A stretch of DNA of 64,000 bases from Candidatus Krumholzibacteriota bacterium. Its GTDB lineage: Bacteria; Krumholzibacteriota; Krumholzibacteriia; LZORAL124-64-63. Below, in pieces: positions 1,029-61,396 of this stretch. Position 1 is the stretch's first letter; each line of letters begins with the position of its first letter. The notes beneath the pieces are model-generated. The model did no database searches. It saw only the letters and a program-made list of their open reading frames with translations, and had not been told where the DNA came from. The stretch lies in the NCBI GenBank assembly GCA_039714075.1, contig JBDLKA010000005.1, positions 24,788 to 88,787 on the forward strand. Direction: 5' to 3'. The position numbers and the translations under genes are program-made.

Positions 1029-1126
1029 CCGGCAGGCGCTGCCTGTAAGCAAAGGGCCGGGATAATCCGCAGGGGCGAAGCCCTGAGGACATTCCCGGCC
1101 CTTTGCTTACAGGCAGCGCCTACCGG
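1029..1126. repeat. Long inverted repeat, REP/REPIN-like hairpin between convergent genes
   Basis: 1034-1062 is the exact reverse complement of 1093-1121 (29 bp), extendable to 34 bp with one mismatch; inner hairpin capped by GCGAAGC; no U-tract. Confidence 0.8.
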
Positions 1127-31988: not shown

Positions 31989-32012
31989 CCGCCGGCGGAT
32001 AAAGGTGGCGAT

Positions 32013-32065
32013 TTATAAAATTATTACATTATCTTTTCATCACCTTTACAGATTACAGCTAAATT
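32013..32065 (+). promoter_or_regulatory. Four-copy 11-bp direct-repeat array (Pho-box/OmpR-like) with a possible -10 element
   Basis: TTATA 32013, TTACA 32024, TTTCA 32035, TTACA 32046 (exact 11-bp period); TAAATT at 32060. Confidence 0.55.
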
Positions 32066-32142
32066 CCCCCTTGTTTCGAGTCTGTTGGATTCCGGGAGTA
32101 ATCCCGGAACCGTCAAATGCCATCAAAAAAGGAGTCGCCACC

Positions 32143-33396: not shown

Positions 33397-33413
33397 CCCC
33401 TCGATCGAATCCG

Positions 33414-33449
33414 AAAAAGCCGGCCGCGGTATGGTACCGCGGCCGGCTT
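33414..33449. terminator. Probable bidirectional terminator between the porin and cytochrome genes
   Basis: 15-bp perfect stem AAGCCGGCCGCGGTA/TACCGCGGCCGGCTT, 3-nt loop, A5 on the left flank. Confidence 0.8.
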
Positions 33450-33478
33450 ACTTTCATCCCCCTACCGGAATTATCGGA

Positions 33479-36133: not shown

Positions 36134-36289
36134 GGCGGATCTCCCCTGATCATGGTGGTGGATTCTTCGGACCAAGAATCGGAATGAACCGCAAACTCAG
36201 TATCGAAATTTTGAAAACATTATGACGGAATCAGTACTGATTAGCAACCCTAAAAAGCATGTATTTTTGATGAAAACTGATTTTAAGAA

Positions 36290-38299
36290 TCATCTAAACT
36301 TATCCAGGACATCCACATCAACCCACCAGATATCCGTACTCCCATTGGTGTTATCTTTGTGTAGCTTTAGAAAATTTTCACGTTTAATTTTATCTTTTGT
36401 GTTGTTTTCTGTCTTATTGGTGCTGAAAAATAAATACTTCCCATCAGGTGAGAGAGAACCCGATGCGGCGCGCAAACCGGGCCCGTTGAACGGGTCGCCC
36501 GGATTGACCGCGGGGCCCCAACTCCCCTTCTCTTCCCGGAAACTGATCCAGTAATCGCTGTTCCCCAGATTCTCGGGGTGCCCGTTCACACAGAAAAGGA
36601 GCCAACTTTCGTCGGGGGCCACGGTCCCGTTGTAATTGGCCTGGCCCACGTTGACGGTGGCCGGCAGCCGCCGGGGCTCCCCAAAACCATTTCCCAACGG
36701 CTCGGCCGCCCAGAGGGCCGCCTGTCCCTGGTCGTCCTCACGCGTGAAATAAAGTGTCCCGTCGGCGGCAAGGCTGGGAAAATATTCCGCGGCGGAGGTG
36801 GTGATCGGCGCCGCGAGGGCCTCGGGTTCCTCCCAGACCCCATTGACCAGGCGGCTGCTGAAGATGTTCTGGTTGGCCCACCCCTGCCCCTGCTCCTGAC
36901 CCGGAGCGGCGCGGTTGGACAGGAAAAGCACCCGCTGCCCGTCAGCCGCAAGGGTCGGCTCGAAACAGAAGAACTCCCCGTCGCGGTGGAAGGGCACCGG
37001 AGCCGGTTCTGTCCAGCGCCCCCCAGTCAGCCGGGTTTCCATGATCGTGACCAGGCCCTGCCCCATGAAACCGTACCAGATGGTTCCACCGTCGCCGCTG
37101 ACGAGCAGGTCCCGCTCGTTCATGCCGGTGCTGACGATGCCGGGCGCAAAAACGACGGGTTCGAGACCAGGCGGCTCCTGGCCCAGATATGGGCCCGCCA
37201 ACTCCGGAAAGGGGACCGGCTCCGGACGCGGGCCGGAAACCGCGGCTGGTGCGGGAACATCGACGGCGGCCGGCAGATCATCCAGAAAATCCGCCCGGAC
37301 AAGGTTGATGTTGGGATTGCCCCCACCGGCGATCAGGTGGGCAGTCTGGAGATCGCCCCACGCCGCGGGCCAGGCAGGCTCGGGAATGTGCCGGCGCGCG
37401 GACATGAACATGAAGGTCCCGCCGTCGGGAGTCAGGTAGGGAGACCAACTCTGCGGCGATCCGTCGTTGATGACCGGCCCCAGGTTGACGGGTTCGTTCC
37501 AGGTGTCGTCTTCGTTGCGGCGAACCAGGAAATAGTCCACCTGGCCGTGACTGCCGGGCATGCCCGCCGCCGGTACGATCAGAAGGGTCTCGTCGGGGGA
37601 GATCGTGGCGTTGAAACGGTTCACCCCGCAGTTGACCTGGTCGGGGAGTAGCTCGGGCACCTGAAAACCGTCTCCGTCCGGACGGGCGCGAAAGATCCGG
37701 TGGATCCTTCCCGTCGAATCGGCCCGGGTGAAATAGAGGGTCCCGTCCCGGGTGACGGCGGGAAAAAACTCCGCCTGGTCCGTATTGACCGGACCGTCCA
37801 GGTTCCGGGGCTCGCTCCAGCGGTCCCCCTGGCGGTCCATGACCCAGATATCGGCCTCCCCCTTTTCCTCGCCGGCTTCCGGCCGGGTGGACATGAAGAA
37901 GAACCGCTGCCCGTCCGGCGAGATGAACGGTTCCAGGTCCAGCCAATCCGGCGACCCGGAGAAAGGGGCGGTTTCCGGCTCGGTCCAGGCCCCGTCCGCG
38001 AATTGGGTGACCAGGATGACGGCGTAGCGATAACCCGGGGCGGCCATGCAGAAGTACAACTGCCGACCGTCCGGGGTCATGGTCACGTCGCGGGTGTTGA
38101 CGCCGGTATTGACCATCCCCGGCGCGAGCAGCGCGGGAACGGCTGTGGGGACGGTTCCCCCGGGGAGCCCCGGCGATGATTCAGAAACGGTGTGGCCGGA
38201 GGCTTCCGGCGAATCCGCTGCCGGTGAAAGAGCGACCCAACCGAACACCGCCGCGATCAGGAGGGGAATGACCCGAAACATCCGGTGCCGGAAAGCCAT
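36290..38299 (-). CDS. Secreted protein with two tandem PD40/TolB-like beta-propeller modules
   Basis: Signal peptide; repeated P..SPDG..L.F.S motifs; two homologous halves (APGMVNTGVNTRD / APGIVSTGMNERD). Confidence 0.8.
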   Translation of the reverse strand: MAFRHRMFRVIPLLIAAVFGWVALSPAADSPEASGHTVSESSPGLPGGTVPTAVPALLAPGMVNTGVNTRDVTMTPDGRQLYFCMAAPGYRYAVILVTQFADGAWTEPETAPFSGSPDWLDLEPFISPDGQRFFFMSTRPEAGEEKGEADIWVMDRQGDRWSEPRNLDGPVNTDQAEFFPAVTRDGTLYFTRADSTGRIHRIFRARPDGDGFQVPELLPDQVNCGVNRFNATISPDETLLIVPAAGMPGSHGQVDYFLVRRNEDDTWNEPVNLGPVINDGSPQSWSPYLTPDGGTFMFMSARRHIPEPAWPAAWGDLQTAHLIAGGGNPNINLVRADFLDDLPAAVDVPAPAAVSGPRPEPVPFPELAGPYLGQEPPGLEPVVFAPGIVSTGMNERDLLVSGDGGTIWYGFMGQGLVTIMETRLTGGRWTEPAPVPFHRDGEFFCFEPTLAADGQRVLFLSNRAAPGQEQGQGWANQNIFSSRLVNGVWEEPEALAAPITTSAAEYFPSLAADGTLYFTREDDQGQAALWAAEPLGNGFGEPRRLPATVNVGQANYNGTVAPDESWLLFCVNGHPENLGNSDYWISFREEKGSWGPAVNPGDPFNGPGLRAASGSLSPDGKYLFFSTNKTENNTKDKIKRENFLKLHKDNTNGSTDIWWVDVDVLDKFR

Positions 38300-38321
38300 C
38301 GTTCAACTCCTTGCGGGGTGG

Positions 38322-40412
38322 TCAGTCACCGGTTTCCGAAAGCACCCCGGCCAGGGCCTGGCGCATCACCTTCAGGCTGTAGGGTTTGGCGACAAAGCCC
38401 GCGATGTCGAAACCGCTGGTCTTTTCGGCGACCTCGTCTGAATCATAACCGCTTGACAGAAGCACCGGGATATCGGACCGGATGGCCCGCATCCGGCGAT
38501 AGGCGGACATGCCGTCCATGCCGGCCATGGTGAAGTCAAGCAGGACCGCGTGGATGTCCCGGTGGCGCTCACTGAAAATGCGCACCGCTTCGAACCCGTC
38601 CGGGGCCGAAAGGATTTTGCAACCCAAGCGGCGCAGGAAGCTCTCCCCCACCGCCCGGACGGACGGGTCATCGTCCACGACCAGGATGAGCTTGCCCTTC
38701 AGGTCGACACCCGCCACCTCGGGGCTGCGACGGCGGCGTCTGCGGGGCGCGGTCGTTTCCGTCTCGTGGACGGGCAGCAGAAAGGAAATGGTGGTCCCGC
38801 CCACGGGTCCTGTTTCCATGGTGAACCCGCCCTGGTGACCCTTGATGATTCCCAGGGCGGCGGACATCCCCAGACCCCGGCCCTGGAACTTGGTGGTGAA
38901 GAACGGGTCGAACATCCGGCCCGCGGTTTCATCATCCATCCCGCACCCGGAGTCCCGGATCTCGCACCACACATACCGGCCCGGCTGCAACCCTTCCCCG
39001 GCCACGACCTCTTTCACGTCGACGGCCGTCAGTTCCCTGACGCCGGTCCGCACCATGATCTCGCCACCGTCGTCGCCCATGGCCTCGGCCGCGTTGCCCA
39101 CCAGGTTCATCAGGACCTGCCTGATCTGCGGTTCATCGATCAGGACCGGCGGCAGATCTTCCGCGAGCTCGAAATGCAGATGCGACCTTTTGGAAACCGA
39201 GACCTGCAGCAGTCTCCGGATATCGAGGATGAGCCGGCTGATATTCACCGGGCGGCCGGAAATCCGCCCCTTCCCGGCGTAGGCCTGCATCTGCCGGCAC
39301 AGGTCCGCGGCGCGGCCCGCGGCCTCCAGGACCGCGTCCAGGTTGTTGCGGTTGGTCGAACCCTCCGGCAGATCGCTCTGCACTATTTCCGCGTTGCCCA
39401 TGATGGTCACCAGCAGGTTGTTGAAATCGTGGGCGATGCCGCCGGCCAGCACCCCCAGGCTTTCCAGTTTCTGTGCGTCCCGCAGGCGGGCTTCGAGTTC
39501 CCGCTGCTCCAGGTCGACCCGTTTGCGTTCGGACACGTCCCGCGCAACCAGCAGGACCTGAGGTTCCTCGCCCGCCCTCGAGCCTGGAATCAGGGTCGAG
39601 CTGACCTCCATCGGAACCAGTCGGTCGCCACCGTCCTGGAAAACCGTCTCGTAGAGGAAGACCCCCCCGTTGACCGAGGCGCGCTGCTTCTTGCGCTCGA
39701 GGATTTCCTCCTTGAGTTCGAGCGGGGTCAAATCCACCACGTTGCTGCCGATGAATTCATCTTCAGTGTATCCGGTCAATTCCAGCCCCGCCCGGTTCAC
39801 GAAAGTCACGATGCCCGCCAGGTCATGGCAGATGATGACGTCATGAGCGGTCTCGACCAGCAGCCGGTAGCGTTCCTCCGAGCCGGCAAGATCCTGCTGG
39901 GCCTGTTTCAACGCGGTGATGTCGATGGTCGCCAGGACGAGAAGGTCATCGGGTTGGTCCGGGCTCGGCAACCAGAACTGGTTCATGGTGAAGTAGTGGC
40001 GGTCGTCCAGCGCGCGGTACTGGCATTCACCTTCGTAATACGAGTCGCCGCGTTCGATGGCCTTCAAGACCTCCTTGACGCCCGGCAGCGACTCGGGCAG
40101 CAGCCTGTCAAGGATACTGAGCATTTCCCCGCGACTCGAGGCGGCGTTCAGGGTGATGGCCGCCACATTCACATCCACCACCCGGACCATGGCCAGGGCC
40201 TGGGTGATGAATTCGGGATGGACATCGAGCCAGGCGCCGAAATCCTCAACGCCGCCGGCCTTCACTTCGTCGATGGCGTGCCGCATCAGGGAAATGTCTT
40301 CCACGAACATGGGCACCATGGCCGTCCGGAAGACATTTTCCCAGTCGGACCGGTCCAGGTCCACCGGCGGGAATGATCGTGGCGACCGGTCAGGATTTGG
40401 TAAGGGACTCAT
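38322..40412 (-). CDS. PAS-domain hybrid sensor histidine kinase/response regulator (CckA-like)
   Basis: PAS domains, LAGGIAHDFNNLL H-box, QVLMNLVGNA N-box, DPFFTTKFQGRGLG, receiver VLLDFTM; cytoplasmic, no TM. Confidence 0.9.
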   Translation of the reverse strand: MSPLPNPDRSPRSFPPVDLDRSDWENVFRTAMVPMFVEDISLMRHAIDEVKAGGVEDFGAWLDVHPEFITQALAMVRVVDVNVAAITLNAASSRGEMLSILDRLLPESLPGVKEVLKAIERGDSYYEGECQYRALDDRHYFTMNQFWLPSPDQPDDLLVLATIDITALKQAQQDLAGSEERYRLLVETAHDVIICHDLAGIVTFVNRAGLELTGYTEDEFIGSNVVDLTPLELKEEILERKKQRASVNGGVFLYETVFQDGGDRLVPMEVSSTLIPGSRAGEEPQVLLVARDVSERKRVDLEQRELEARLRDAQKLESLGVLAGGIAHDFNNLLVTIMGNAEIVQSDLPEGSTNRNNLDAVLEAAGRAADLCRQMQAYAGKGRISGRPVNISRLILDIRRLLQVSVSKRSHLHFELAEDLPPVLIDEPQIRQVLMNLVGNAAEAMGDDGGEIMVRTGVRELTAVDVKEVVAGEGLQPGRYVWCEIRDSGCGMDDETAGRMFDPFFTTKFQGRGLGMSAALGIIKGHQGGFTMETGPVGGTTISFLLPVHETETTAPRRRRRRSPEVAGVDLKGKLILVVDDDPSVRAVGESFLRRLGCKILSAPDGFEAVRIFSERHRDIHAVLLDFTMAGMDGMSAYRRMRAIRSDIPVLLSSGYDSDEVAEKTSGFDIAGFVAKPYSLKVMRQALAGVLSETGD

Positions 40413-41295
40413 TGATTCGTCGCGCCTCCATGGCACCTTTCCAGCGGCGATGGACCCAGAACCATTGTTCCGGACGTTTGCGGATGAACCGTTCCACCGC
40501 CTCCGAAATCCGACCCGTAAAATCCCTGATGTCCTCTTCCCTGTCCGTCAGCCCCTCCGGTTCGAGAGGGTCTGCGATATGCAGGGTATGGTTGCCGTCG
40601 TCATTCCTGAGTATGGCAAGCGGGACAACAGGGCACCCCGTACGTATCGAAATCTTCGCTGCTCCCGGCCAGGTCGAGGCCCGGCTGCCCAGAAAGTCAG
40701 TCGCAAAACCCGTCTTGCCGGCATCCTGGTCCATCAACAGGGTGACCAGTCCCCCGGAACGCAGATGCGCGAGAACCGCCCGGCCGGATCGTTCCACCGG
40801 CACCGTCCTGATCCCGAACCTGAGGCGCTGCTCCTGAAGAAACCGGTCGAAGGGAGCATTCCTCTGGGTCTTGACGACGTCCAACAGTGGAAACCGTTGC
40901 GCGAGAACCCTGCCGCCCAGTTCAAAATTCCCGATGTGCCCGGTGGCGGCGATGACGCCCCGGCCCCGGGCCATGACTCGATCCAGCCCGGCCCAACCGG
41001 GTTCGACGGTCACGGTGTTCATCAGCACATCCGGATCGGCGCACAGGACTTCCGCCGCCGTGGCGCCGAGATGATCGTACACCCGCCCAACCAGCTCTGC
41101 AAGTTCCACGGCGGACAATTCAGGAAAAGCGGTTTGCAATTGTTGTTCAGCCACCTTGCGCCTGACACCGAGAACCGTTCCTGCCACCCGGCCCGCCTGG
41201 CGCAGCAATCCGCGGGACCAAGGGTACGGCAGGGGTTTCAGCCCGGCAAGTCCCAGACGGAAAAGGGAATATTCGATCTGGCTTTTTAAATCCAT
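40390..41295 (-). CDS. Lipid A lauroyl/late acyltransferase (LpxL/HtrB family)
   Basis: TGHIGNFE (H-x4-E), LLMDQ, FLG..A.T.PGAA, PEQWFWVHRRWK. Confidence 0.88.
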   Translation of the reverse strand: MDLKSQIEYSLFRLGLAGLKPLPYPWSRGLLRQAGRVAGTVLGVRRKVAEQQLQTAFPELSAVELAELVGRVYDHLGATAAEVLCADPDVLMNTVTVEPGWAGLDRVMARGRGVIAATGHIGNFELGGRVLAQRFPLLDVVKTQRNAPFDRFLQEQRLRFGIRTVPVERSGRAVLAHLRSGGLVTLLMDQDAGKTGFATDFLGSRASTWPGAAKISIRTGCPVVPLAILRNDDGNHTLHIADPLEPEGLTDREEDIRDFTGRISEAVERFIRKRPEQWFWVHRRWKGAMEARRINESLTKS

Positions 41296-41749
41296 GCAGT
41301 GAGAATAGGGGACATGGCGGTTCAATTCCAGTTCAGCCCAAACCTGAACCCTCCCGGAGGGTTTGAATGAATTAAAATATCCAAAATTCTGTTATTTTTT
41401 TGATAGCCTGAGCATCCCGGCTTTTTACGATTGGAAAGAACCTGTTTCGGCTACCTGGCCACGTTTTTGGAAGATGTTTTTTGGTGAAACAAGACAAAGT
41501 TGTCCTTAAATCTTTTTTTTAACAGGCAATACCATGGGGTTCAGCAGAACGACTTAAAACACAGTATTTTACCATGATTTTACCGGCGGCGTCCGGTAAC
41601 GAAGGTTGGATCTGATTATTCTGCAAATTCACCAGATTGGCTGTTGTCGCAGCCCCATCAAATCCTTTGATCGGACCGGCCCGATGATTCACCCTACCTC
41701 CATAGTCCCATTCCAGTTTCGGTCCATTTCCAGGACAAGGAGCCCGACG

Positions 41750-43078
41750 ATGAAACGAATCCTGATCGCCACCTGTGCCGTGGCCTTCCTCCTGACCGGC
41801 GCCGCCCTGGCCGCCGAAGAAACAGTGGCCGGCAAGTGCATGACCTGCCACAAGGAAAAGTCACTCGGTCTTTACAACCAGTGGTACAAAAGCGAACACG
41901 CCAAGCACAACGTGACCTGCCTGGACTGTCACAAGGCCGCCGAGGGGGACAGCGACAGCTACATGCATGAGGGCGCCCTGATCGCGACCCTGGTCACTCC
42001 CAAGGATTGCGGCAAGTGCCACGAGAAGGAGGCCCAGCAGGTCAACGACAGCTACCACGCGCACGCCGGAGAGATCCTCGATTCCAAGGACGCCTATCTG
42101 GCCCACGCCGCGGGCGGCGCGCCGGCTGCGATCGCCGGCTGCGAAAGCTGCCACGGCAGCAAGGTCAAGATCGATCCGGACAGCCCCAACAAGCTGGACC
42201 GCTTGAGCTGGCCCAACAGCGGCATCGGCCGGATCAACCCCGACGGCAGCAAGGGCGCCTGCACGGCCTGCCATACCCGGCACGCCTTCAGCGTCAAGCA
42301 GGCCCGCCAGCCCGAAGCCTGCTCCAAGTGCCACCTGGGCCCGGACCATCCGCAGAAGGAAGTCTACGAGGAGTCCAAGCACGGCAACGCCTACTACACC
42401 CACAAGGACGAGATGAACCTCGATTCCGACCGCTGGGTCGTGGGCGTGGACTATTATGAAGCCCCCACCTGTGCCACCTGCCACATGTCGGCCACGCCCA
42501 AGCAGCCCATCACACATGACGTCGGGCAGCGCATCAGCTGGACCCTGCGTCCGCCGGTGTCGGTGACCAAGGAAGACTGGGAAACCAAGCGGGCCAACAT
42601 GAAGGATGTCTGCATCAACTGCCACGGAGCCGCTTTCGTGGACGGCCATTACGCCCAGTTCGACGGCATCGTCAACCTTTACAACGAGAAGTACGCCAAG
42701 CCGGGCCTGGCCTTGTACAAGAAGGCCAAGGAACTCAAGCTGGGCGAAGGGGTCGCCAACTTCTCCAACAAGTACGAGTGGATCTGGTGGGAGATCTGGC
42801 ACCACGAAGGCCGCCGCGCGCGCCACGGCGCCGCCATGATGGGCCCCGACTATACCTGGTGGCACGGCATCTACGAGGTCGCGCAGCACTTCTACTTCAA
42901 GTACATCCCCGAGTTGCGGAAATTCCACAACCCGGAGCTGGACAAGATGATCGACGAAGTGATGGCCGACCCCTACCACAACTGGCTGAACCGTCCGACC
43001 GCCGACATCAAGGCCGACATCAAGTCGGGCAAGATGGAGGAAATGTACAAGGACATGTACCAGGTCGGAACCAAGTAA
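41750..43078 (+). CDS. Octaheme c-type cytochrome, hydroxylamine oxidoreductase (HAO) family, reductive type
   Basis: AAGGAG RBS, signal peptide, eight CxxCH, CHLGPDHPQ, HHEGRRARHGAAMMGPDYTWWHG. Confidence 0.88.
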   Translation: MKRILIATCAVAFLLTGAALAAEETVAGKCMTCHKEKSLGLYNQWYKSEHAKHNVTCLDCHKAAEGDSDSYMHEGALIATLVTPKDCGKCHEKEAQQVNDSYHAHAGEILDSKDAYLAHAAGGAPAAIAGCESCHGSKVKIDPDSPNKLDRLSWPNSGIGRINPDGSKGACTACHTRHAFSVKQARQPEACSKCHLGPDHPQKEVYEESKHGNAYYTHKDEMNLDSDRWVVGVDYYEAPTCATCHMSATPKQPITHDVGQRISWTLRPPVSVTKEDWETKRANMKDVCINCHGAAFVDGHYAQFDGIVNLYNEKYAKPGLALYKKAKELKLGEGVANFSNKYEWIWWEIWHHEGRRARHGAAMMGPDYTWWHGIYEVAQHFYFKYIPELRKFHNPELDKMIDEVMADPYHNWLNRPTADIKADIKSGKMEEMYKDMYQVGTK

Positions 43079-43090
43079 AGGGGCGCAGCG

Positions 43091-44638
43091 ATGAAGCGAT
43101 TCCAGCTCTTCATCCGCGGCATCATGACGAACTGGACCGGAACGGCGGGGGTCGCCCTGGCGACCTCCTCCTTCATCCTGTTCCTGTTCTTCGAGTTGCT
43201 GCAGATCGCGGGAATCCTGAACAATTCCTACGTGGGCCTCATCAGCTACATGGCCCTGCCGGCCCTGTTCATACTCGGCCTGGTCCTGATTCCGCTCGGC
43301 TGGTGGCAGTTCCGCCGGGCGACAGGACGCACGACCTCGGAGTTGCTCACTCAGAGATTCCCCGACGACATGACGAAAGCCAAAAGGCTCGGATCGTCCC
43401 TCATGGGCACGATTTCCCTGCTGACGGTGATCAACATCCTGTTTCTCGGCGTCGGCGGAGCCCGCATGCTCCATTTCATGGATACGCCGAAGTTCTGCGG
43501 AACGGCCTGCCATTCGGTCATGGAACCGGAATGGGTGGCCTACCAGAATTCCCCCCACGCCCACGTGCGCTGCATCGACTGCCATGTCGGCGAGGGCGCC
43601 GGCGCGCTGGTGAATGCCAAACTGAACGGCATGTGGCAGGTCATTTCGGCCTCCTTGGACCTGTACGACCGGCCCATTCCAACGCCGGTTCACCAGCTGC
43701 GTCCGGCGCGGGAAACCTGTGAGAAATGCCACTGGCCCGACAAGTTCTACGGCGACCGGATCAAATCCTTCCAGACCTTCGGCTTCGACCGGGAGTCCGC
43801 CGCCAGGCACACCACGCTGGCGCTGAAGGTCGGGTCGGGCGCCGGAGACGCGCACGGCACCATCCACTGGCACATCGCCGAGGCCAACGAGGTCCGGTAC
43901 CAGACCGCGGACGACCAACGCCGGTCGATGGAGTGGGTGGAGATCAAGCGGGGTGACGAATTCCACCGTTACACCAACCGGAACAACGGCGTCCACGGGG
44001 GTGGGGATACCCACTCCCCCGAGGTCCGTTCCATGGACTGTGTCGATTGCCACAACCGGGCGACCCACATCTATGAGGATCCCGAACAGGCCGTCGACGC
44101 GGCCCTGGCCGCCGGACGGATCAGCCGGGACCTTCCCTTCGCCAAGAAGGTGGGACTGGGTGCGCTGCTGGGACGGTACGGCGTTACCAAGGACGACGGC
44201 CTCAAGGGCATCGACAACGAGGTGCGCGGATACTACTTCCGCCAGGAGCACGACGGGCCGGTCAACATGCAGGACGTGGACCTGATGGTCGCAGCACTGC
44301 AGGACATCTACGCCCGCAACATCTTCCCGGGCATGAAGGTGGAGTGGAACACCTATCCCTCCCATCTCGGGCACGAGAACGACGGCGGGTGTTTCCGCTG
44401 CCACAACCAGGACATGGTCGACGAGACGGGCGCAGCCATTCCCTACGACTGCACGCTGTGCCATTCGATCCTGGCCATGGACAGCCCGACGGAGTTCCAG
44501 TTCCTGCTGCCGGCGGACGTGAAGGATCCGGACCGCAAGATGCACGAGTATCTGCGGCGGGAGTTCCTGGGCATTCCCCAGGGCGTCTTCCCGGAGCCGG
44601 ACTCCACGGAAACCCGGGAGGTGTCGCTGGTAGAGTGA
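43091..44638 (+). CDS. Membrane-anchored NapC/NirT-family multiheme cytochrome c (extended, 6 heme motifs)
   Basis: Three N-terminal TM helices, FCGTACH, CIDCH, CEKCH, CVDCH, CFRCH, CTLCH. Confidence 0.82.
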
Positions 44639-44655
44639 CGCACCGGGCAAGCGAA

Positions 44656-44691
44656 TGCGGGGCGGTCCAGGTGGCCGCCCCGTATTTTTTT
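44656..44691 (+). terminator. Intrinsic terminator of the HAO/NapC operon
   Basis: TGCGGGGCGGTC/GGCCGCCCCGTA stem followed by T7. Confidence 0.8.
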
Positions 44692-44780
44692 GCGAACCGC
44701 CTTCGACCCCGGAGGGAAATACCCTTACCATGGCCCTGATTACCCGGGCCCGGATCGCGACCTTGCACATGGAGAAGACC

Positions 44781-45467
44781 ATGAACAATCCCGACCATCT
44801 TCCCTTCGACGGTTTGCCTGAACTCACCGAACAGGAAATGCTCACCCGCGCCCGGGCCTTCCACGACCTGGTGGTCGGCCGCAGAACGATACGGGATTAT
44901 TCCGACCGCCCGGTCCCCCGCGAAATCATCGAGGCCTGCGTGACGGCGGCGGGCCAGGCGCCCAGCGGGGCCAACATGCAGCCCTGGCATTTCGAGATCG
45001 TGGGCGACCCGGAGATCAAGCGGAAAATCAGGGAGGCGGCCGAAGAAGAAGAACGCAGCTTCTACGACGGACGCGCCAGCGAGGAATGGCTGGAAGCCCT
45101 GGCGCCCCTGGGCACCGACGCCGCCAAACCCTTCCTGGAGACGGCACCCTGGCTGATCGTCATCTTCGAACAACGTTACGGGGTTGGTCCCGACGGAGAA
45201 AAGATTCGCTACTACTACACCAAGGAATCGGTGGGTCTGGCGACGGGTTTTTTGATTGCCGCCCTCCACAACGCAGGACTCGCCTCCCTGACCCACACCC
45301 CCAGCCCCATGGGATTCCTGAACAGGATCCTGGAACGGCCGGGCAGCGAAAAACCGTTCCTGCTGCTGGTTACAGGTTTTCCGTCTCCGGATGCGACGGT
45401 GCCCGACATCACCCGCAAAAAGCCGGCTGAATACATCAGGTTCCGGAGCGAAAGCGACCAGGATTGA
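44781..45467 (+). CDS. Nitroreductase-family flavoprotein, iodotyrosine deiodinase (IYD)-like
   Basis: [29 protein letters not shown]...[21 protein letters not shown]; GGAG RBS. Confidence 0.8.
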
Positions 45468-45643
45468 ACCCGCCCGGTACGCGGGTTGAATCCCGCCGCC
45501 CTTTGGGGTATCATGAATGGGTAAATGAACCGTATCACCCCTGATCGATTCATGCAGGCTTCAGGTGGGACGGCATCCGGTTATCGGTTCGCCGTCCCCC
45601 AAGCCGGATATGGTCCTGCCGCTTTTAACCAGGGGGATCAATA

Positions 45644-46294
45644 ATGAATACTTGTCACCAGGCCCGATTCCCAGCCGTGATCCTGTTTTCCCTGTGCGCC
45701 CTTGCCGCTCTAATCGCATCCCCCGCCCCGGCCGGCATCGGCGGTCCCCACGGGGAATACTCCATGGCCTACCAGGGCCCCGAAACCCTGACCCTTTTCG
45801 TGGTGCCCGACGGCAGCGGCGACACCTTCGACCAGGCCTTCCTGCCGGTCGGCGGGCGGGTGGACGCCACCATCACCTTGATACTCAGGGACGCAGGAGA
45901 GCAACCGATCGCCAATTTCCCCCGGGAAGACATGTGGCTTGAGTCAGAAGACGGAGGGCTGACACCCTGCCCAATGGGAAATATCGCGGACGCCAACACC
46001 GACGCCAACGGAATGACCTACTGGCAAAACCCCATGTATGCGGGCGGAAACAGCCAGGCCCTGACCGTGGTCATGGTCAGTGGCATGCTGATTGAATATA
46101 CCGTTGGCGTACCCCTGAGCTACAACAGTCCCGACATCAACGCGGACCGGGTCGTGAACCTGACGGACGTGCAGATGTTCACCCTGGATTTTTTCACGGG
46201 ATATGATTTCCGCTCGGATTTCTACCGGGACGGAGTCGTCAATCTCAGTGACCTGCCCGCGCTGGCTTACGCCATCGGGGCGGCCTGTCCCTGA
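45644..46294 (+). CDS. Secreted hypothetical protein with C-terminal dockerin-like double Ca-binding repeat
   Basis: Hydrophobic leader; DINADRVVNLTD and DFYRDGVVNLSD repeats. Confidence 0.6.
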   Translation: MNTCHQARFPAVILFSLCALAALIASPAPAGIGGPHGEYSMAYQGPETLTLFVVPDGSGDTFDQAFLPVGGRVDATITLILRDAGEQPIANFPREDMWLESEDGGLTPCPMGNIADANTDANGMTYWQNPMYAGGNSQALTVVMVSGMLIEYTVGVPLSYNSPDINADRVVNLTDVQMFTLDFFTGYDFRSDFYRDGVVNLSDLPALAYAIGAACP

Positions 46295-49604: not shown

Positions 49605-50872
49605 TGGATTTCTATTCCCTGCTGGTGCGTTTCGAGAACTCGTCCTTCTACCTGGCCATGCTGATCTATTTCGCCTGGTACCCCCTGGCCACCAGCGTGA
49701 TGTGGATCTTCACCTCCATCCTGTTTTTCCGGCAGAAGGAGGTGGGCGAGACCGATTTCTACCAGACCGGCGCCGAGGCGGGCGATCAGCCCATGGTCTC
49801 GTTCGTCATCCCCGCGTTCAACGAGGAAAAGAACATCGCCGCCACCTTGACCGGCGTACTCGCGGTCGAATATCCCGATTTCGAAGTCGTGGTCATCGAT
49901 GACGCCTCCACCGACGGCACCCTGGACGAAATTCAGTCTTTCCTGGCCGACCCCCGCATCCGTCTGGTCCAAAAAATGGTCAACGAAGGCAAGGCCATGG
50001 CCCTGAACGACGCCATCCCCCTGACCAGGGGCGAACTGCTTTTCGTCATGGACGCCGACGCCATCCCCATCCCGGATGTCTTGAAATACCTGGTGCCCCA
50101 TTTCCGCTACCCGCGCTGCGCCGCGGTGACCGGCAACCCCCGGGTGGTCAACCGGGACAGCTTCCTGTCCAAGCTGCAGTCGATCGAATTCGCCTCGATC
50201 ATTTCCCTGATGCGGCGGGCCCAACGGATCTGGGGTCGAATCATGACCATGAGCGGGGTGGTCGGCATCTTCCGGCGCACCGCCCTGTTCGACGTGGGCC
50301 TCTACAGTCCGGAAATGGCCACCGAGGACATCGACCTGACCTGGCGCCTGCAGATGCGCCACTGGGATGTCCGCTACGAATCCCGCGCGGTGATGTGGAT
50401 GCGCGTCCCCCAGTCGCTGAAAGGCCTGTGGTGGCAGCGGCGGCGCTGGTCCCTGGGCCTGAGCCAGGTTTTGACCCGGCACGGTCGGAACCTCCTGGAC
50501 TGGAAACAACGCCGCTTCTGGCCGGTCCTGATCGAGGCCAACCTGTCGGTGGTCTGGGCCTACATCTACGTGCTGCTGACCATCATCTGGCTGGTCAGCT
50601 ATTCCATGGGCTACCCGCCCCGCGGGGCTTCGCCCATTCCCAACTTCTGGGGCATGGTGATCGCCACCATGTGCCTGATCCAGTTGATGACCGGGGTCAT
50701 CCTGGACAACTCCTATGACCGGGCCCTCAGGAAATACTTCATCGTCGCGGTCTTCTACCCCCTGGTCTACTGGATCCTGATGGCCGTCATCACCGTGACC
50801 ACGGCCCCCGTGGGCCTGAACGTCAACCGCCAGAAGCGCAAGTACACGCTCTGGAAACCCGTCCGGGAGTGA
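49604..50872 (+). CDS. pgaC: Poly-beta-1,6-N-acetylglucosamine synthase-like GT2 (PgaC/IcaA)
   Basis: IDDASTD, NEGKAMALN, MDADA, AAVTGNPR, TEDIDLTWRLQ, QRRRW; flanking TM helices. Confidence 0.85.
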   Translation: MDFYSLLVRFENSSFYLAMLIYFAWYPLATSVMWIFTSILFFRQKEVGETDFYQTGAEAGDQPMVSFVIPAFNEEKNIAATLTGVLAVEYPDFEVVVIDDASTDGTLDEIQSFLADPRIRLVQKMVNEGKAMALNDAIPLTRGELLFVMDADAIPIPDVLKYLVPHFRYPRCAAVTGNPRVVNRDSFLSKLQSIEFASIISLMRRAQRIWGRIMTMSGVVGIFRRTALFDVGLYSPEMATEDIDLTWRLQMRHWDVRYESRAVMWMRVPQSLKGLWWQRRRWSLGLSQVLTRHGRNLLDWKQRRFWPVLIEANLSVVWAYIYVLLTIIWLVSYSMGYPPRGASPIPNFWGMVIATMCLIQLMTGVILDNSYDRALRKYFIVAVFYPLVYWILMAVITVTTAPVGLNVNRQKRKYTLWKPVRE

Positions 50873-52371
50873 CCATGACCCGCCAACGGCACAACTTGAC
50901 GGTCCTGCTCCTTTTGACGCTGGCCGCGGCATCGAGCGGGCCGGTCCGCCTGTACGCCGCCGAAGCCGCGCCGCCGGACACCGCCGCGGTGGAGAAGGTC
51001 ATCAACCCCGAACTGGCCCGGGCCAAGGTCGCCGAGGCCCGGGAGGCCGCAAGCCGCGACCGCCATCACGACGCGGTGGGCGACTACCTGGAAGCCCTGT
51101 CCCACGATGCGACCCTGGTGCCGACCGTGGCCCAGGAACTGGCCTACCAGGAGCTCTGGCGGGAGGACGCGGAGAAATCCATCTTCTATTTCCGCAGGTA
51201 CCTGGCCCGCCATCCCGACCAATCCAACCGTGACGTGCGCAAGGGCCTGGCCCTGGCCTACAGTTGGAGCGGGCGTCAGACCGAAGCCATCGCGCTGTAC
51301 CGGGAACTCGTCCGGGAGGACCCCACCGACGGGAGCGCGCGGATCGGCCTGGGCCGCAGCTTGATCTGGGACAACCGGTTGCACGAGGGTTTCACGGTCG
51401 TCCGTAAGGTGGAGGACGAATTCCCCGCCGCAACCGGACCCGGGAGGGAAAGCTCGGACTTCCTGCTGACGGTGCTGGACGACTACACACCGCACCTGGA
51501 ATTGAAGGCCGACGCCAGCTGGGACTCCGACGACCTGGACATCTACCGGTGGACCGCCACGGGAACCTTCACCGTCTTCGGCAACAAGCTGCTGCAGGCC
51601 ATCCCGGTCTGGGAATTGTTCCAGCAGCCCGGCCAGGCGGACATCACCAATCTGAAACCCGGGGCCGGATTCATCACGCCCCTGGCCCACAACTGGACCC
51701 TGCACGCCTACGGCTGGCTGGACCGCTACCGCTCCGGCGAGCCCCTGTTCGGCGGAACCGAAAAGTTGAAATGGGACAGGTTCGGCGGCGATTTCTGGTT
51801 CACCTGGATCGCCCGGCCCAAACTCAGGCTCGATTTCGGCGGCACCTCCAAACCGGTGGAGACCTTCGTGGCGCTGAACAACAAGGTGGGCTTCAGGCAG
51901 GGCAATCTTTCGGCCGACTGGCGCTTCGCCCGGCATTTTTCCCTGGGAGCCGCGGGCCAGTTGGCCGACTACAGCGACGGCAATGAAAAGCTCAAGGGCA
52001 GCCTGCGCCTGGACTGGCGAAAGGAAGGCCGCTGGGACCTGACCGTGGGACCCGTCCTGACCTACATGGATTTTTCCCTCCCCTACCCCGGCGGTTACTG
52101 GGCACCCGACTGGGTCAGGAACGGCAGCATCGAGGCCACCTTGAAGACCCGGACCGACCGCCTGACCTTCAAGCTCAACGGCAGCCTCGGCCGGGAAAAG
52201 GAAACGGGTTCCGCGGCCCAGACGGTAGGCGGAGCTTCCGGACGGATCGGCTGGCGTTTCAGCCCCGGCTGGCTGGCCGCGCTCGAGGGCGGTTATTCCA
52301 AGTCGTCATTCGCCACCGCCAGCGGCTACAGCCGGACCTTCGCCAGCCTGTCGGTACGGGCCCTATTCTGA
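50869..52371 (+). CDS. TPR plus outer-membrane beta-barrel protein, PgaA-like exporter
   Basis: Signal peptide, TPR-like helices (LALAYSWSGR), beta-strand C-terminal half ending in Phe (LSVRALF). Confidence 0.6.
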   Translation: MTMTRQRHNLTVLLLLTLAAASSGPVRLYAAEAAPPDTAAVEKVINPELARAKVAEAREAASRDRHHDAVGDYLEALSHDATLVPTVAQELAYQELWREDAEKSIFYFRRYLARHPDQSNRDVRKGLALAYSWSGRQTEAIALYRELVREDPTDGSARIGLGRSLIWDNRLHEGFTVVRKVEDEFPAATGPGRESSDFLLTVLDDYTPHLELKADASWDSDDLDIYRWTATGTFTVFGNKLLQAIPVWELFQQPGQADITNLKPGAGFITPLAHNWTLHAYGWLDRYRSGEPLFGGTEKLKWDRFGGDFWFTWIARPKLRLDFGGTSKPVETFVALNNKVGFRQGNLSADWRFARHFSLGAAGQLADYSDGNEKLKGSLRLDWRKEGRWDLTVGPVLTYMDFSLPYPGGYWAPDWVRNGSIEATLKTRTDRLTFKLNGSLGREKETGSAAQTVGGASGRIGWRFSPGWLAALEGGYSKSSFATASGYSRTFASLSVRALF

Positions 52372-52383
52372 CGTGGGATCAAG

Positions 52384-53433
52384 ATGATGCGCAAATCTCC
52401 GGTCGGCACAACCATCTTCCTTTTTCTTCTGCTGACGGCGGCCATATCCGGGTTTTCCGGCTGCGGCGGCGGTTCCGACAATGCGGAGGGCAGGAAACCC
52501 GCGGGCTACTTCCTGGACTCCCCGACCCTGGCCACCGGCGGATTTCCCATGATCGAAGACGGGGTGCCGGTTTTCTGTTACCACTATTTCCGGTCGGGTT
52601 TCGATGCGGGTTACCTGATGAAGGTCCTGGGCTCGGTCATATTGGGCATGCCCGCCCTGGGCCCCCGGGAATTCTGGACCACGCCCGTCGGCGAGTTTGA
52701 AAAACACCTGCGGTTTTTCCGGGATACCGGGACGGTGGTCATGACCCTCGACGAGGTGGCCGATCTGGTCGCCAGCGGCAGGGACCTGCCACCGCGGGCG
52801 GCCATCCTGACCATCGACGACGCCGATCGCAGCGTTTACGAACTGGCTTTTCCGCTCCTCAAAAAATACGGCATGAAGGCCCACCTCTTCGTCCCCACCG
52901 CCCAGGTGGGAAAATCCTGGAGCGAGCTCGACCTGTGCACCTGGGAACAGCTTGCCGAAATGGAAGCATCCGGCCACGTGCTGCTCGGATCCCACACCCG
53001 CGATCTTCATTTCAAGGTGGAAGTGGACGGTGACTTGGAACCGGTTTTCTTCAATCCCGGGCAGGTGCCCCGGGAGGCCAGGCTCCGGAATTTGACCGAC
53101 CTGTCCCGGCGGGCCGGATCCCGGGCCCCGGACGTCATCCCCGTCGATCTGGCGGAGCTGCTTTCCGGACCCTACGCGGCGGTGGCGGCCGACCTGGTGG
53201 CCAGCAGGGTCGATCTCCGGACCGGGGCCGACGCCGGGGCGGCCTGGCTGGCCTGGCCCTACGGCTTTGCCAGCGATGAACTTGACAGCCTCGGTCGGGC
53301 GGCGGGTTTCCGGGGGACGGTCTCCCTCTATCCCGAGGCCTTTACCGTGCGCGACACCTCATTGCAGGTCGGACGGTTCGCCCTGACGGCCAAAACCACC
53401 GTCGGCCATATCGCCAACCTCTATCCGCGCTAA
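52384..53433 (+). CDS. Polysaccharide deacetylase lipoprotein (PgaB/IcaB-like, CE4 domain only)
   Basis: Lipobox FSGC, YHYF, LTIDDAD, GSHTRDLH, AWPYG. Confidence 0.8.
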   Translation: MMRKSPVGTTIFLFLLLTAAISGFSGCGGGSDNAEGRKPAGYFLDSPTLATGGFPMIEDGVPVFCYHYFRSGFDAGYLMKVLGSVILGMPALGPREFWTTPVGEFEKHLRFFRDTGTVVMTLDEVADLVASGRDLPPRAAILTIDDADRSVYELAFPLLKKYGMKAHLFVPTAQVGKSWSELDLCTWEQLAEMEASGHVLLGSHTRDLHFKVEVDGDLEPVFFNPGQVPREARLRNLTDLSRRAGSRAPDVIPVDLAELLSGPYAAVAADLVASRVDLRTGADAGAAWLAWPYGFASDELDSLGRAAGFRGTVSLYPEAFTVRDTSLQVGRFALTAKTTVGHIANLYPR

Positions 53434-60287: not shown

Positions 60288-60316
60288 AAAACGGCCGCCC
60301 GGAAGGCGGCCGTTTT
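60288..60316. terminator. Bidirectional intrinsic terminator
   Basis: AAAACGGCCGCC-CGGAA-GGCGGCCGTTTT between convergent genes. Confidence 0.85.
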
Positions 60317-60362
60317 AATTGTTGCCGCTGAATCAGCGGCCTTGGTCGGAAAAACCGTCCGT

Positions 60363-60968
60363 TTACCGGAACAGGCTCTTCACGCTGCCGAAGGAGCTTT
60401 CTTCGACACCGACGGGTCCCGTGCAGTCGCCGTTGTACGTCAACTGGGGAATCCAGGTATCATGACCCAGGGGATCACCCAGGGCCGGGTGCAGTTCCAC
60501 ACCAGTGCTACCGGAGGCCTCGAGGTAAGCCGGAGGACCCTGGATGGGGTCGATCAGGCTGAAGTAGACGCCTTCGATGAAAGCCAGGCTCGGCTGGGAC
60601 ACGTCATTGTAGAAGCTGCTCACCATGAACTGCAGTTCGGCAACGACAACTTCACTGGCAGTCGCCAGCATCGGGGCGGGATAACCGACGATGAATTCGT
60701 CGACGCGGGTCGCGGCATTCACATGGTCACCATAAACGGTTTCGCCAAGCTTCATCATGTTGGAGTAGGTGATCTTGGCTTCCCAACCCCAAACCTCGTC
60801 GTTGGTCAGCTTGGACAGGACAACGTAGGTGGTGAAAGGAGTGTCTTCGCCAATGGTACCACAGTTGGGTTCCAGGCCGATGTTGTCAAAGTAGGTGGGG
60901 TCCTGGGCGAAAGCGGATCCGCTGAGGGCGAAAGCCACCAAGGTCAAGACAAGAACCATCTTCTTCAT
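60363..60968 (-). CDS. Secreted hypothetical protein with C-terminal VxxExxSFGxVKxLFR motif
   Basis: AGGAG RBS, clear signal peptide (SAFA-Q), beta-rich body, two Cys, tail PVGVEESSFGSVKSLFR. Confidence 0.8.
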   Translation of the reverse strand: MKKMVLVLTLVAFALSGSAFAQDPTYFDNIGLEPNCGTIGEDTPFTTYVVLSKLTNDEVWGWEAKITYSNMMKLGETVYGDHVNAATRVDEFIVGYPAPMLATASEVVVAELQFMVSSFYNDVSQPSLAFIEGVYFSLIDPIQGPPAYLEASGSTGVELHPALGDPLGHDTWIPQLTYNGDCTGPVGVEESSFGSVKSLFR

Positions 60969-61396
60969 TTTGTCGCTCCTCTGGTGAGTGGAGATTAAAT
61001 TTTGGGGCTACCCATTTTGGACGTCCCCCGGCGAACGAAATCAACCTTGTCCCAAGATTATATCATAACTGAAGCTCATTTACACGAAAAAATGTGGGAT
61101 TGTTTTCCTTTTTTATCAATCAGCTTTCAAAACCGGAACGGTTCCCCATGACATTAACCCTTTATTTTTTAATGAATTACCAATAAACACCTTAATTATT
61201 AATATATCAACCCGGCCCGCATTGATATTCCGCCTCATGGTCCCCTCGTGACCGGATCCGCATTTCAGGGGAGAAATCCGGAAAAATTCCCGCGAAAAAA
61301 ACTGGCCTCAATTCGACCGCCAAATGATAGTTTTCCCTGTACCGGACAATCCCGTAGCCGGCATGGACCCGCCCGCATACCCTCGGAGGTTATTCC

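Follow-up and report, generated by a model that had tools for sequence, protein, structure and literature searches.

A portable C-terminal tag on exported proteins of Krumholzibacteriota and other FCB bacteria: a candidate sorting or retention signal

The locus and its protein

The window considered here, which is the whole 64-kb stretch of DNA that was analyzed, carries on its minus strand an open reading frame (ORF) of 201 codons plus a stop codon (60363-60968, with the stop codon at 60363-60365), as given by the ORF list and its translation. A Shine-Dalgarno-like AGAGGAG can be read from the sequence 7 nt 5' of the ATG (60976-60982, minus strand), and the gene is monocistronic. Its 3' region includes two hairpins (60292-60374; hairpin scan and sequence). 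One of these, found by the scan, overlaps the stop codon (60355-60374), and the other is a GC-rich hairpin evident in the sequence (cggccgcc/ggcggccg, 60292-60312) that has A and T runs on its flanks and lies between convergent genes. The sequencing runs found to hold the window are two marine metagenome DNA runs, with no RNA runs among them.

The first 21 residues of the protein (60906-60968, minus strand) are assigned to a Sec/SPase I signal peptide on the basis of sequence and family conservation. The N-terminus, MKKMVLVLTLVAFALSGSAFA with predicted cleavage before QDP, has the appearance of a typical SPase I signal peptide, and residues A19, A21, Q22, and P24 are nearly invariant among family members. 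A match of the protein to PhrK is confined to the signal peptide. An earlier note on this DNA had described a secreted, beta-rich protein, and this description agrees with the signal peptide and with the confident nine-strand sandwich that AlphaFold2 predicts for residues 28-180 (mean pLDDT 84.9 for the model, and >90 over residues 28-160).

The mature body (residues 22-184; 60417-60905, minus strand) is a cohesin-like nine-strand beta-sandwich according to AlphaFold2 and Foldseek. About 40 cohesin chains were recovered by Foldseek at E ≤ 1e-3, the best being 5nrm_A (E 4e-6, TMt 0.67), and the target-length-normalized TM-scores of the cohesin chains are mostly 0.5-0.67 at a sequence identity of about 10%. 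The body therefore shares its strand topology with the cohesins of cellulosomal scaffoldins, but differs from them in this low identity, in the lack of a match to the Pfam Cohesin model at E ≤ 10, in having no dockerin partner identified (dockerin models gave no match to the scanned window proteins), and in belonging to a diderm FCB host. Two cysteines conserved in the family alignment, Cys36 (codon at 60861-60863, minus strand) and Cys182 (60423-60425, minus strand), probably pair as a disulfide in the body.

The protein belongs to a family of approximately 200-aa proteins that Krumholzibacteria-type genomes carry as one to three tandem copies at a fixed locus. A first profile search with the tail was dominated by this family. 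An S9 peptidase that adjoins the window gene was considered as a specific partner and rejected. Its position is conserved together with the entire block around it, and general synteny thus explains its proximity.

The chain ends as ...NGDC-TGP-VGVEESSFGSVKSLFR, and its last 17 residues (185-201, PVGVEESSFGSVKSLFR; 60366-60416, minus strand) constitute a portable C-terminal tag, as delimited by profile search, genome scan, and family conservation. The tail does end in Arg and lacks a transmembrane segment, as had been observed previously; the protein stops at R201, so no hydrophobic segment follows. A Cys-Thr-Gly-Pro linker preceding the tail had also been pointed out. This sequence is indeed present, but it is a family detail, since the invariant Cys182 belongs to the body and the portable unit comprises only the final 17 residues. 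The tag motif occurs once in the window.

Conservation and recurrence of the tag

The tag has the general form [PV]-[VT]-[PA]-[VT]-E-x-[STA]-[ST]-[WF]-G-x-[IV]-K-[ASG]-[LM]-[YF]-R-COOH. More than 80 members of the window family, with overall identity extending down to 31%, have a nearly invariant tail, and mean column identity is 0.80 over the last 10 residues versus 0.60 over the body. In a logo of tags, constraint is seen at almost all positions other than -7 and -12, a pattern more in keeping with a peptide that a binding partner surrounds completely than with generic lipid binding. At the DNA level, third-position identity among tag codons is 0.50, every Gly and Arg codon is used, and the Ser and Thr codons are diverse. 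Such free variation at synonymous sites means that selection acts on the tag as protein, and it rules out a DNA-level repeat or mobile element as the cause of the recurrence.

The position of the tag is strictly terminal. The core motif occurs 155 times in the 838 kb of loci listed, every time no more than two residues from the C-terminus, and this holds for the 16 of these 155 occurrences that lay outside the selection made by the scan pattern. An extra one or two residues follow approximately 7% of tags, and some tags of the beta-helix family are followed by up to about 10. These extensions indicate that the final Arg need not have a free carboxylate, and some of the extended copies may be decaying.

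A codon-agnostic DNA scan for the tag was carried out over 185,579 species genomes with a pattern that fixed E (-13), [ST], W, G, K, [YF], and R. Residue frequencies at the fixed positions are therefore not independent estimates, and the requirement for W means that the scan under-samples the F variant, which is the form present in the window protein. At least 120 loci and at least 140 ORFs were found, whereas about 2-11 would be expected by chance. A true stop codon directly ends all 140 of the ORFs listed, with TGG in none of them versus 25% by chance (p 3e-18).

The tag is also modular. Among 125 carrier bodies from the listed matches of the genome scan, 66 unrelated BLAST clusters can be distinguished, and by Pfam these bodies are beta-helix/PMP proteins, X25+Big_5 proteins, or PD40 propellers, or they have no match. 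Members of the window family account for only six of the 140 carriers listed, and the other 134 fall outside it. A profile search with the last 30 residues returned 236 representatives at E ≤ 1e-3, including full-length proteins with signal peptides that do not match the body HMM of the family (P0133, P0171, P0173, P0194, P0208, P0218, and P0221). An uninformative word-index search, with a mixed-family 40-aa tail alignment, yielded just nine candidates. Only one ORF in the window bears the tag, and matches in the first profile search were mostly to the ~200-aa family, observations that would suit a family-specific structural element or a chance similarity. This explanation is given next to no credence, as it is refuted by the number of unrelated body clusters, the predominance of carriers outside the family, the true stops, and the excess of loci over chance expectation. 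The prediction that the tail would end many unrelated proteins rather than those of one family has accordingly been borne out.

A signal-peptide-like N-terminus is present in 105 of 113 carriers (93%) versus 167 of 374 control ORFs (45%; p 2e-22), as judged by a crude hydrophobicity heuristic whose background, at 45%, is high. The tag is thus associated with signal peptides, in line with the earlier proposal of secreted carriers. Many are small, at approximately 200-250 aa, and are encoded in tandem arrays, such as those of four, six, and three copies at loci L026, L050, and L099, respectively. A scan of viral contigs, performed as a low-prior control, yielded four matches, of which three resemble genuine tags on host-like genes.

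Exported beta-rich proteins with an aromatic residue at position -2 of the extreme C-terminus also bring to mind the beta-signal by which BAM inserts small outer-membrane beta-barrels. This reading is considered extremely improbable. The last residue is Arg rather than an aromatic residue in 139 of 139 logo sequences, although Arg was fixed there by the scan pattern, and fold predictions contradict a barrel, giving soluble folds for the bodies (cohesin-like sandwich, beta-helix, and propeller). Moreover, the porin-like and PgaA-like outer-membrane proteins of the window end in ...IYKF and ...RALF.

Searches of the whole window protein and of 10 isolated tails against Pfam and NCBIfam gave no match to the tag, even at E ≤ 10, and a literature search that included literal motif strings found no description of it. 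The earlier remark that such tails have no known characterized machinery is consistent with both results. Given its presence at the end of at least 66 unrelated exported families, the tag looks like a portable, uncatalogued address label.

Hosts and gene neighborhoods

Every host among the loci listed is a MAG. Those that are named belong to Eisenbacteria, Krumholzibacteriota, Latescibacterota, Gemmatimonadota, and Zixibacteria or are labeled Fibrobacteraceae. The taxonomy of the tag is restricted. Krumholzibacteriota, Eisenbacteria, and Latescibacterota had been named in the earlier note and are confirmed as hosts, with Fibrobacteraceae, Gemmatimonadota, and Zixibacteria now added. Genes beside the tagged genes at the 120 loci listed include no specific recurrent family, only generic ECF sigma factors, response regulators, ABC ATPases, and TPR proteins.

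A choice between the tag and T9SS sorting domains

Among homologous bodies, some bear the tag and others a T9SS type A (FlgD-like) C-terminal domain (CTD), but none has both, which amounts to a 'choice-of-anchor' arrangement. For example, one tagged protein (locus L011, 5761-6414) is 70% identical to an adjacent paralogue that bears a CTD. The best 120 beta-helix homologues comprise 39 canonical tags, about 32 degenerate tags, 34 FlgD/T9SS type A CTDs, and two dockerin-like ends. A CTD HMM built from neighboring genes matches 47 of 620 untagged genes versus none of 122 tagged genes, and a protein matching this HMM is present at 39 of the 120 loci listed. Tag carriers have a median length of about 250-400 aa versus about 700 aa for their CTD-bearing homologues. 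This choice on homologous bodies backs the earlier suggestion that the tail may take the place of the FlgD/T9SS-type domain.

Both kinds of terminus occur in the window. An MtrC-like multihaem protein of 898 aa (33479-36175, minus strand) ends in a FlgD_ig/T9SS type A sorting domain, which occupies its last ~80 residues (about 33482-33733, minus strand) and terminates as ...RHKMTLIR (TIGR04183, 26.9 bits against a cutoff of 23; PF13860, E 2e-13). The window organism hence also uses the classical T9SS-type CTD. A PD40-propeller protein (36290-38299, minus strand) has partial similarity to PorE-family T9SS and OmpA-like proteins, with scores far below curated cutoffs (107 bits versus 600 for the PorE-like match). 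None of the T9SS core genes SprA, PorV, PorU, and GldKLMN was seen within the 64-kb window.

There are several parallels between the tag and the T9SS type A CTD (TIGR04183/PF18962; PF13860). Each is found at the very C-terminal end of Sec-exported proteins from bacteria of the FCB group, and the window protein has a Sec signal peptide, as does T9SS type A CTD cargo. Each is also modular, is borne by many unrelated passengers, and can be interchanged on homologous bodies. The FlgD_ig-like PF13860 form of the CTD is common in FCB candidate phyla. Unlike the type A CTD, which spans 70-100 residues, the tag has 17 residues, no Ig-like fold, and no model match. In cargo of the CTD type, PorU removes the signal and the protein becomes attached to anionic LPS.

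The tag might therefore be a minimal T9SS signal, read by the T9SS itself through PorV/SprA or a lineage-specific adaptor, and serving as a drastically abbreviated substitute for the Ig-like CTD of ~80 residues. The exchange on homologous bodies, the frequent adjacency of tagged and CTD-bearing proteins, the absence of co-occurrence, the bona fide CTD cargo of the window genome, and the CTD HMM matches at 39 of the 120 loci listed all favor such a role, as does the fact that every named host phylum belongs to the FCB group, which is where the T9SS occurs. The two signals even end in a comparable manner, with a basic residue, three or four mostly hydrophobic residues, and a basic residue at the C-terminus ([RK]-K-[LIM]-[VTM]-[LV]-[LV]-[RK] for the CTD and K-[ASG]-[LM]-[YF]-R for the tag), but this resemblance is loose and the spacing is off by one residue. 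The tag lacks similarity to TIGR04183, PF18962, and PF13860, and 17 residues are too few for the Ig-like fold that the T9SS is known to recognize. Furthermore, none of the 120 loci listed is labeled Bacteroidota, the main T9SS phylum. On balance, direct reading of the tag by the T9SS is unlikely, while retaining some real chance of being correct.

Predicted structure and possible binding modes

Another prospect is that the tag acts as a docking or assembly peptide, binding a surface scaffold or other tagged proteins noncovalently in the manner of dockerin-cohesin pairs or pilus donor strands. The cohesin-like family would then be both scaffold and ligand of a surface array or fiber. Its fold, its one to three tandem copies at a fixed locus, the tandem arrays of many small carriers, and the replacement of the tag by dockerin-like ends in two beta-helix homologues are in keeping with this idea. 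However, the tag is not docked on its own body in the AlphaFold2 monomer model, and the match to cohesins is at the level of fold only. The family also supplies few of the carriers listed, the others being mostly from other phyla, and tag-bearing genomes that lack the family altogether seem likely outside Krumholzibacteria. Assembly through the tag is accordingly judged improbable.

In the model of the window protein, the tail lies outside the folded body at pLDDT <50 and includes a four-residue helix (residues 197-200). For an unrelated carrier, P0241, the tag is predicted with moderate confidence as a helix over residues 394-400, with a block-mean pLDDT of ~81 (residues 391-400) and ~60 at the final two positions. 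A helical hydrophobic moment of 0.49 was obtained for the last 10 residues, less than 1 SD above the 0.36 ± 0.16 of shuffles, and this test separates helix neither from strand nor from shuffles. The amphipathic helix that had been proposed for the tail is thus weakly supported, in that a short helix is predicted while the moment fails to set it apart.

If such a helix forms, it could lie in the plane of a membrane leaflet as an anchor that needs no receptor, as in E. coli PBP5 and PBP6. The tag resembles the PBP5/PBP6 anchors in being terminal, short, probably helical, and free of a transmembrane helix on Sec-exported proteins, and a helical wheel inferred from the logo places V, L, I, Y, and W on one side with K and R flanking. 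Those anchors show no sequence conservation between unrelated proteins, whereas individual residues of the tag are conserved between unrelated proteins and between phyla, which is not normal for lipid-binding helices, and its amphipathicity is marginal. A lipid anchor would be expected to be longer and less polar than a helix of 10-13 residues in which G, K, E, and S/T are invariant, and six to eight of 114 carriers already are lipoproteins. Membrane anchoring by the tag alone is quite unlikely on these grounds.

Some features of the tag recall tripartite C-terminal signals, including LPXTG/sortase, PEP-CTERM/exosortase, GlyGly-CTERM/rhombosortase, MYXO-CTERM, and PGF-CTERM/archaeosortase. The tag likewise is short, lineage-restricted, found on many unrelated secreted proteins, and of the choice-of-anchor type. 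Tripartite signals consist of a motif, then a transmembrane helix, and then a basic cluster, and their reader is a membrane transpeptidase. In contrast, the tag lacks a hydrophobic segment, its motif being the end of the chain, and NCBIfam CTERM models do not match it.

The strict end-of-chain position is a property shared with PTS1 (SKL-COOH, bound by the TPR domain of PEX5) and with PDZ-binding C-termini (the YxF of outer-membrane proteins bound by DegS, and substrates of Prc/Ctp), and suggests a reader that grips the terminus. PTS1 and PDZ motifs are 3-5 residues long and usually have a hydrophobic end, whereas the tag has 13-17 constrained residues, ends in Arg, and tolerates extensions of one or two residues.

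A proposed role in sorting or retention

The explanation preferred here, which is regarded as somewhat better than an even bet, is that the window gene encodes a Sec-exported, cohesin-fold protein of the envelope or surface whose portable 17-residue tag is bound by a conserved envelope factor for sorting or retention, as an alternative to the T9SS CTD. The protein would first be exported by Sec and its signal peptide removed, and the tag would then hang from the folded body via a short Pro/Val-rich linker. A conserved periplasmic or outer-membrane factor would bind the tag, which is probably a helix of two to four turns, and would direct the protein to, or hold it at, the outer membrane or cell surface. 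Through these steps the tag would act in parallel with the T9SS type A CTD and as an alternative to it. We infer that the tag serves as a signal for sorting or retention, that its reader is a protein partner, and that the outer membrane or cell surface is its destination.

A broader proposal is advanced tentatively, with its chances put at rather less than even. The tag may belong to an undescribed pathway for sorting or surface attachment in non-Bacteroidota FCB lineages (Eisenbacteria, Krumholzibacteriota, Latescibacterota, Gemmatimonadota, Zixibacteria, and Fibrobacterota-like MAGs) that runs parallel to the T9SS and handles a separate cargo of mostly small exported proteins. Its putative reader might be a processing enzyme, or else a protein of the outer membrane or periplasm that binds peptides. 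In a sharper variant of the same proposal, the T9SS would accept an unfolded or helical signal of 17 residues.

Implications

Surface proteomes are predicted mainly by way of C-terminal sorting tags, and LPXTG, PEP-CTERM, and the T9SS CTD have each pointed the way to an envelope machine dedicated to them. The tag described here marks a large and diverse set of exported proteins in phyla that are known almost only from metagenomes. Tagged proteins currently are annotated as 'hypothetical', and a curated model of the tag would annotate many of them at once and would define a candidate surface or secreted proteome for these lineages. Because the same passengers switch between the tag and the T9SS CTD, it becomes testable what, other than the T9SS, decides where exported proteins of FCB bacteria end up. 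If it is the T9SS that reads the tag, then the minimal signal requirements of that system would need revision, and the requirement for a folded Ig-like CTD would be overturned.

The window gene and its protein family

The open reading frame at 60363..60968 (-) is a real gene, with an AGAGGAG ribosome-binding site, an ATG 7 nt further on, and hairpins 3' of its stop codon. Its 201-residue product starts with a classical SPase I signal peptide, MKKMVLVLTLVAFALSGSAFA, followed at the cleavage site by QDP, and its C-terminus reads NGDC-TGP-VGVEESSFGSVKSLFR, after which a hydrophobic segment is absent. An AlphaFold2 model based on an 82-sequence alignment (mean pLDDT 84.9, pTM 0.76) shows, with confidence, a nine-strand beta-sandwich spanning residues 28-180. 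The earlier note had proposed a secreted, beta-rich protein whose tail lacks a transmembrane segment, and each of these features is borne out. Pfam gave no match for the 201-residue protein, and the sole NCBIfam match of the whole protein, PhrK, lies below the cutoff and is confined to the signal peptide. When the PDB was searched with Foldseek, about 40 cohesin modules were retrieved (top match 5nrm_A, E 4e-6, TM 0.67 on the target, about 10% identity). Thus, as modelled, the body is cohesin-like in fold, with the tail lying outside it.

A protein search yielded 88 relatives of about 200 residues, the few named ones coming from Krumholzibacteria MAGs. Nearly all end C-x(2,3)-V-x-[VTN]-E-x-x-[ST]-[FW]-G-x-[VL]-K-S-L-[FY]-R, an ending that persists where overall identity is down to 31-35%, and mean column identity is 0.80 over the last ten residues vs 0.60 over the body. 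Close homologues alternate F and W at the aromatic position of this tag, which indicates that SFG, as found in the window, and the commoner SWG are variants of one module. Synteny is fixed in relatives down to 35% identity: an S9 peptidase gene precedes one to three tandem copies, and an enoyl-CoA hydratase gene follows. Seven syntenic loci (L001, L002, L123-L127) carry one, two, or three tandem paralogues; the window has one. A functional link to the S9 peptidase was rejected because the entire surrounding block is equally conserved, making the arrangement a matter of general synteny.

A portable C-terminal tag on exported proteins

The tail is not limited to this family. When a profile of the last 30 residues was run with hmmsearch against 1.84 billion representatives, 236 of them matched at E<=1e-3. 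Most were family members, and several were full-length signal-peptide proteins of 174-323 residues that carry the tail at the extreme C-terminus but are not matched by a family-body HMM. One genome from each of 185,579 species was then scanned with the codon-agnostic pattern GAR-N6-WSN-TGG-GGN-NNN-NTN-AAR-NNN-NTN-TWY-MGN-TRR, which fixes seven motif positions and for which about 2-11 chance matches are expected over 1.2e12 positions. At least 120 stretches of DNA holding at least 140 matches were found. All 140 listed matches form the in-frame end of an ORF, with TAA, TAG, or TGA as the next codon; TGG, also permitted by the pattern, occurs in none of the 140 (p = 3e-18). Among the matches listed, 125 tail-stripped bodies fall into 66 BLASTP clusters, and only 6 of 140 carriers match the window-family HMM. 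Chance similarity or a family-specific element is therefore effectively refuted. Carrier bodies with Pfam matches include right-handed beta-helix/PMP repeats, pullulanase-X25 with Big_5, and PD40 propellers, and many are unannotated.

It is solidly established that the tag is a portable 17-residue module under protein-level selection. Its consensus, taken from positions left free by the scan, is [PV]-[VT]-[PA]-[VT]-E-x-[STA]-[ST]-W-G-x-[IV]-K-[ASG]-[LM]-[YF]-R, and positions -18 to -21 show an excess of Cys, frequently as part of a small C-x(4-7)-C loop with which the body ends. All four Gly and all six Arg codons are used, Ser/Thr codons are diverse, and third-position identity is 0.50. This free synonymous variation points to selection on the protein, and a DNA repeat as the source was rejected.

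Equally firm is the strict placement of the tag at the chain end. The 838 kb of loci listed contain 155 copies of the core [WF]G.[IVLM]K.[LMIVF][YF]R; 144 are exactly C-terminal, 11 are followed by one or two further residues, and no copy is internal. Of the 155, sixteen lie outside the set picked by the scan pattern and so provide an unbiased sample. Certain proteins (P0195, P0148, P0212, P0217, and the beta-helix homologues P0315, P0323, P0326, and P0329) have tags that are degenerate (ALYW, GTFR, AMCR) or run on for 1-10 residues past the final Arg; such forms may be in decay, or a putative reader may tolerate them. One protein, P0228, bears two tags in tandem (SWGKVKNLFRDRSTGKAGVAQTSWGSVKALFR).

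That the tag sits on Sec-exported proteins of many unrelated families is also solidly shown. Of 113 tagged ORFs whose 5' end is complete, 105 have a signal-peptide-like N-terminus by a crude heuristic, compared with 167 of 374 control ORFs at these loci (p 2e-22), as the earlier note had anticipated. Carriers are mostly small (median about 250 residues), tandem arrays are frequent, and lipoboxes occur in six to eight of 114. At L050 2909..6325 (+), and also in loci L021 and L114, five or six paralogous lipoproteins lie in tandem, each about 230 residues long and ending in the tag. They have a lipobox (LGC, then GDDD) and an acidic linker, and thus combine an N-terminal lipid anchor and a C-terminal tag in one protein.

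Among the loci listed, restriction of the tag to a set of FCB-group candidate phyla is well documented. All 120 derive from MAGs of uncultured hosts: 24 are Eisenbacteria-type (including two labelled Effluviviaceae), 13 Krumholzibacteria, 11 Fibrobacteraceae or Fibrobacter, seven Gemmatimonadota, and three Latescibacteria, with one each labelled Zixibacteria, 'Elusimicrobia', and 'Verrucomicrobia'. The three host groups named in the earlier note (Krumholzibacteriota, Eisenbacteria, and Latescibacterota) are all represented. The remaining 59 loci have no taxon label, and none of the 120 is labelled Bacteroidota, Proteobacteria, or Firmicutes. A control scan of IMG/VR viral contigs gave only four matches, three of which look like genuine tags. 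One of these, L128 (IMGVR_UViG_3300014656_000174, 1094..1135 +), is a signal-peptide protein with the tag (EKTSWGNVKGLFR), encoded on a viral-classed contig of 36% GC, indicating that the tag is used in a low-GC lineage too; some IMG/VR contigs bear host-like envelope genes. No model in NCBIfam (June 2026) or Pfam matches the isolated tails, even at E<=10, and no description of the tag was found in the literature, including by searches with literal motif strings.

Relationship to the T9SS type A domain

The tag is interchangeable with, and exclusive of, the FlgD-like/T9SS type A C-terminal domain (CTD), a conclusion that is likewise solid. The 120 closest homologues of one tagged beta-helix protein include 39 with canonical tags, about 32 with degenerate tags, and 34 with a terminal FlgD/T9SS type A domain, in some cases so named by NCBI or UniRef. 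One tagged protein (L011 5761-6414) is 70% identical to an adjacent CTD-bearing paralogue, with similar pairs in L056 and L108. An HMM of FlgD-like CTDs from neighbouring genes, which finds 47 genes in 39 of the 120 loci listed, matches none of 122 tagged genes. The suggestion that the tail is an alternative to the FlgD/T9SS-type domain is thus upheld, and such a 'choice of anchor' is a classical bioinformatic signature of a sorting module. Two of the 120 beta-helix homologues end in dockerin-like repeats; these ends (GDLDGDDDVDLMDFAIFAEHWL; P0344 and P0348, homologues of L046 1617..3101) represent a third alternative C-terminal module on this passenger. TAG stop codons terminate 55% of tagged genes, 51% of FlgD/T9SS-CTD genes, and 32% of other ORFs in L003-L122 (Fisher p 5e-5).

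CTDs terminate in [RK]-K-[LIM]-[VTM]-[LV]-[LV]-[RK], the tag in K-[ASG]-[LM]-[YF]-R. This loose likeness is only a lead toward the idea that the T9SS itself reads the tag, which we consider unlikely. The window does encode a genuine T9SS type A cargo, an MtrC-like multihaem protein (33479..36175, -) whose C-terminus scores above the TIGR04183 cutoff and matches FlgD_ig. It adjoins a weakly PorE-like PD40 protein (36290..38299, -) in what looks like an extracellular electron transfer cluster (32005..46294), together with a porin-like outer-membrane protein (32005..33396, PF16930), a multihaem cytochrome (41606..43078), and a NapC/NirT-like cytochrome (43091..44638). A 216-residue signal-peptide protein (45644..46294, +) ends in DGVVNLSDLPALAYAIGAACP, reminiscent of a dockerin or EF-hand-like repeat, and has no Pfam or NCBIfam match. 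Elsewhere, a PgaA-like TPR/porin outer-membrane protein (50869..52371, ending RALF) and a PgaB-like polysaccharide deacetylase (52384..53433) suggest an export locus for a poly-beta-1,6-GlcNAc-type exopolysaccharide.

Structure and possible function of the tag

The tag is modelled with low confidence in the window protein, where residues 185-189 and 192-201 have pLDDT <50 and only a four-residue helix (197-200) appears. In P0241, an unrelated beta-helix carrier (mean pLDDT 93.7), it is modelled as a helix at 394-400; block-mean pLDDT is about 81 over 391-400 and drops to about 60 in the final two residues. With a period of four positions, conserved residues fall on three stripes (E-13/W-9/K-5/R-1; [ST]-10/[IV]-6/[YF]-2; G-8/small residue -4), a spacing that fits a helix. 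The helical hydrophobic moment is not significantly above that of shuffled sequences, so the amphipathic helix put forward in the earlier note is plausible rather than established.

A PBP5-like in-plane membrane anchor is improbable, since nearly every tag position is constrained, unlike what non-specific lipid binding entails; this favours a peptide enclosed by a protein partner. A docking or assembly role, in which the cohesin-like body might take part, is very improbable, and a BAM beta-signal is extremely improbable. A candidate reader was sought among the neighbours of tagged genes at the listed loci, where ECF sigma factors, response regulators, ABC ATPases, and TPR proteins recur, all of them generic families. 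These neighbours are not counted against a sorting role, as genes for the T9SS and for exosortases often lie apart from those of their cargo. The most likely function, which we favour with modest confidence, is that of a sorting or retention tag: Sec would export the carrier, and a conserved envelope factor would then read the tag to bring about sorting or retention.
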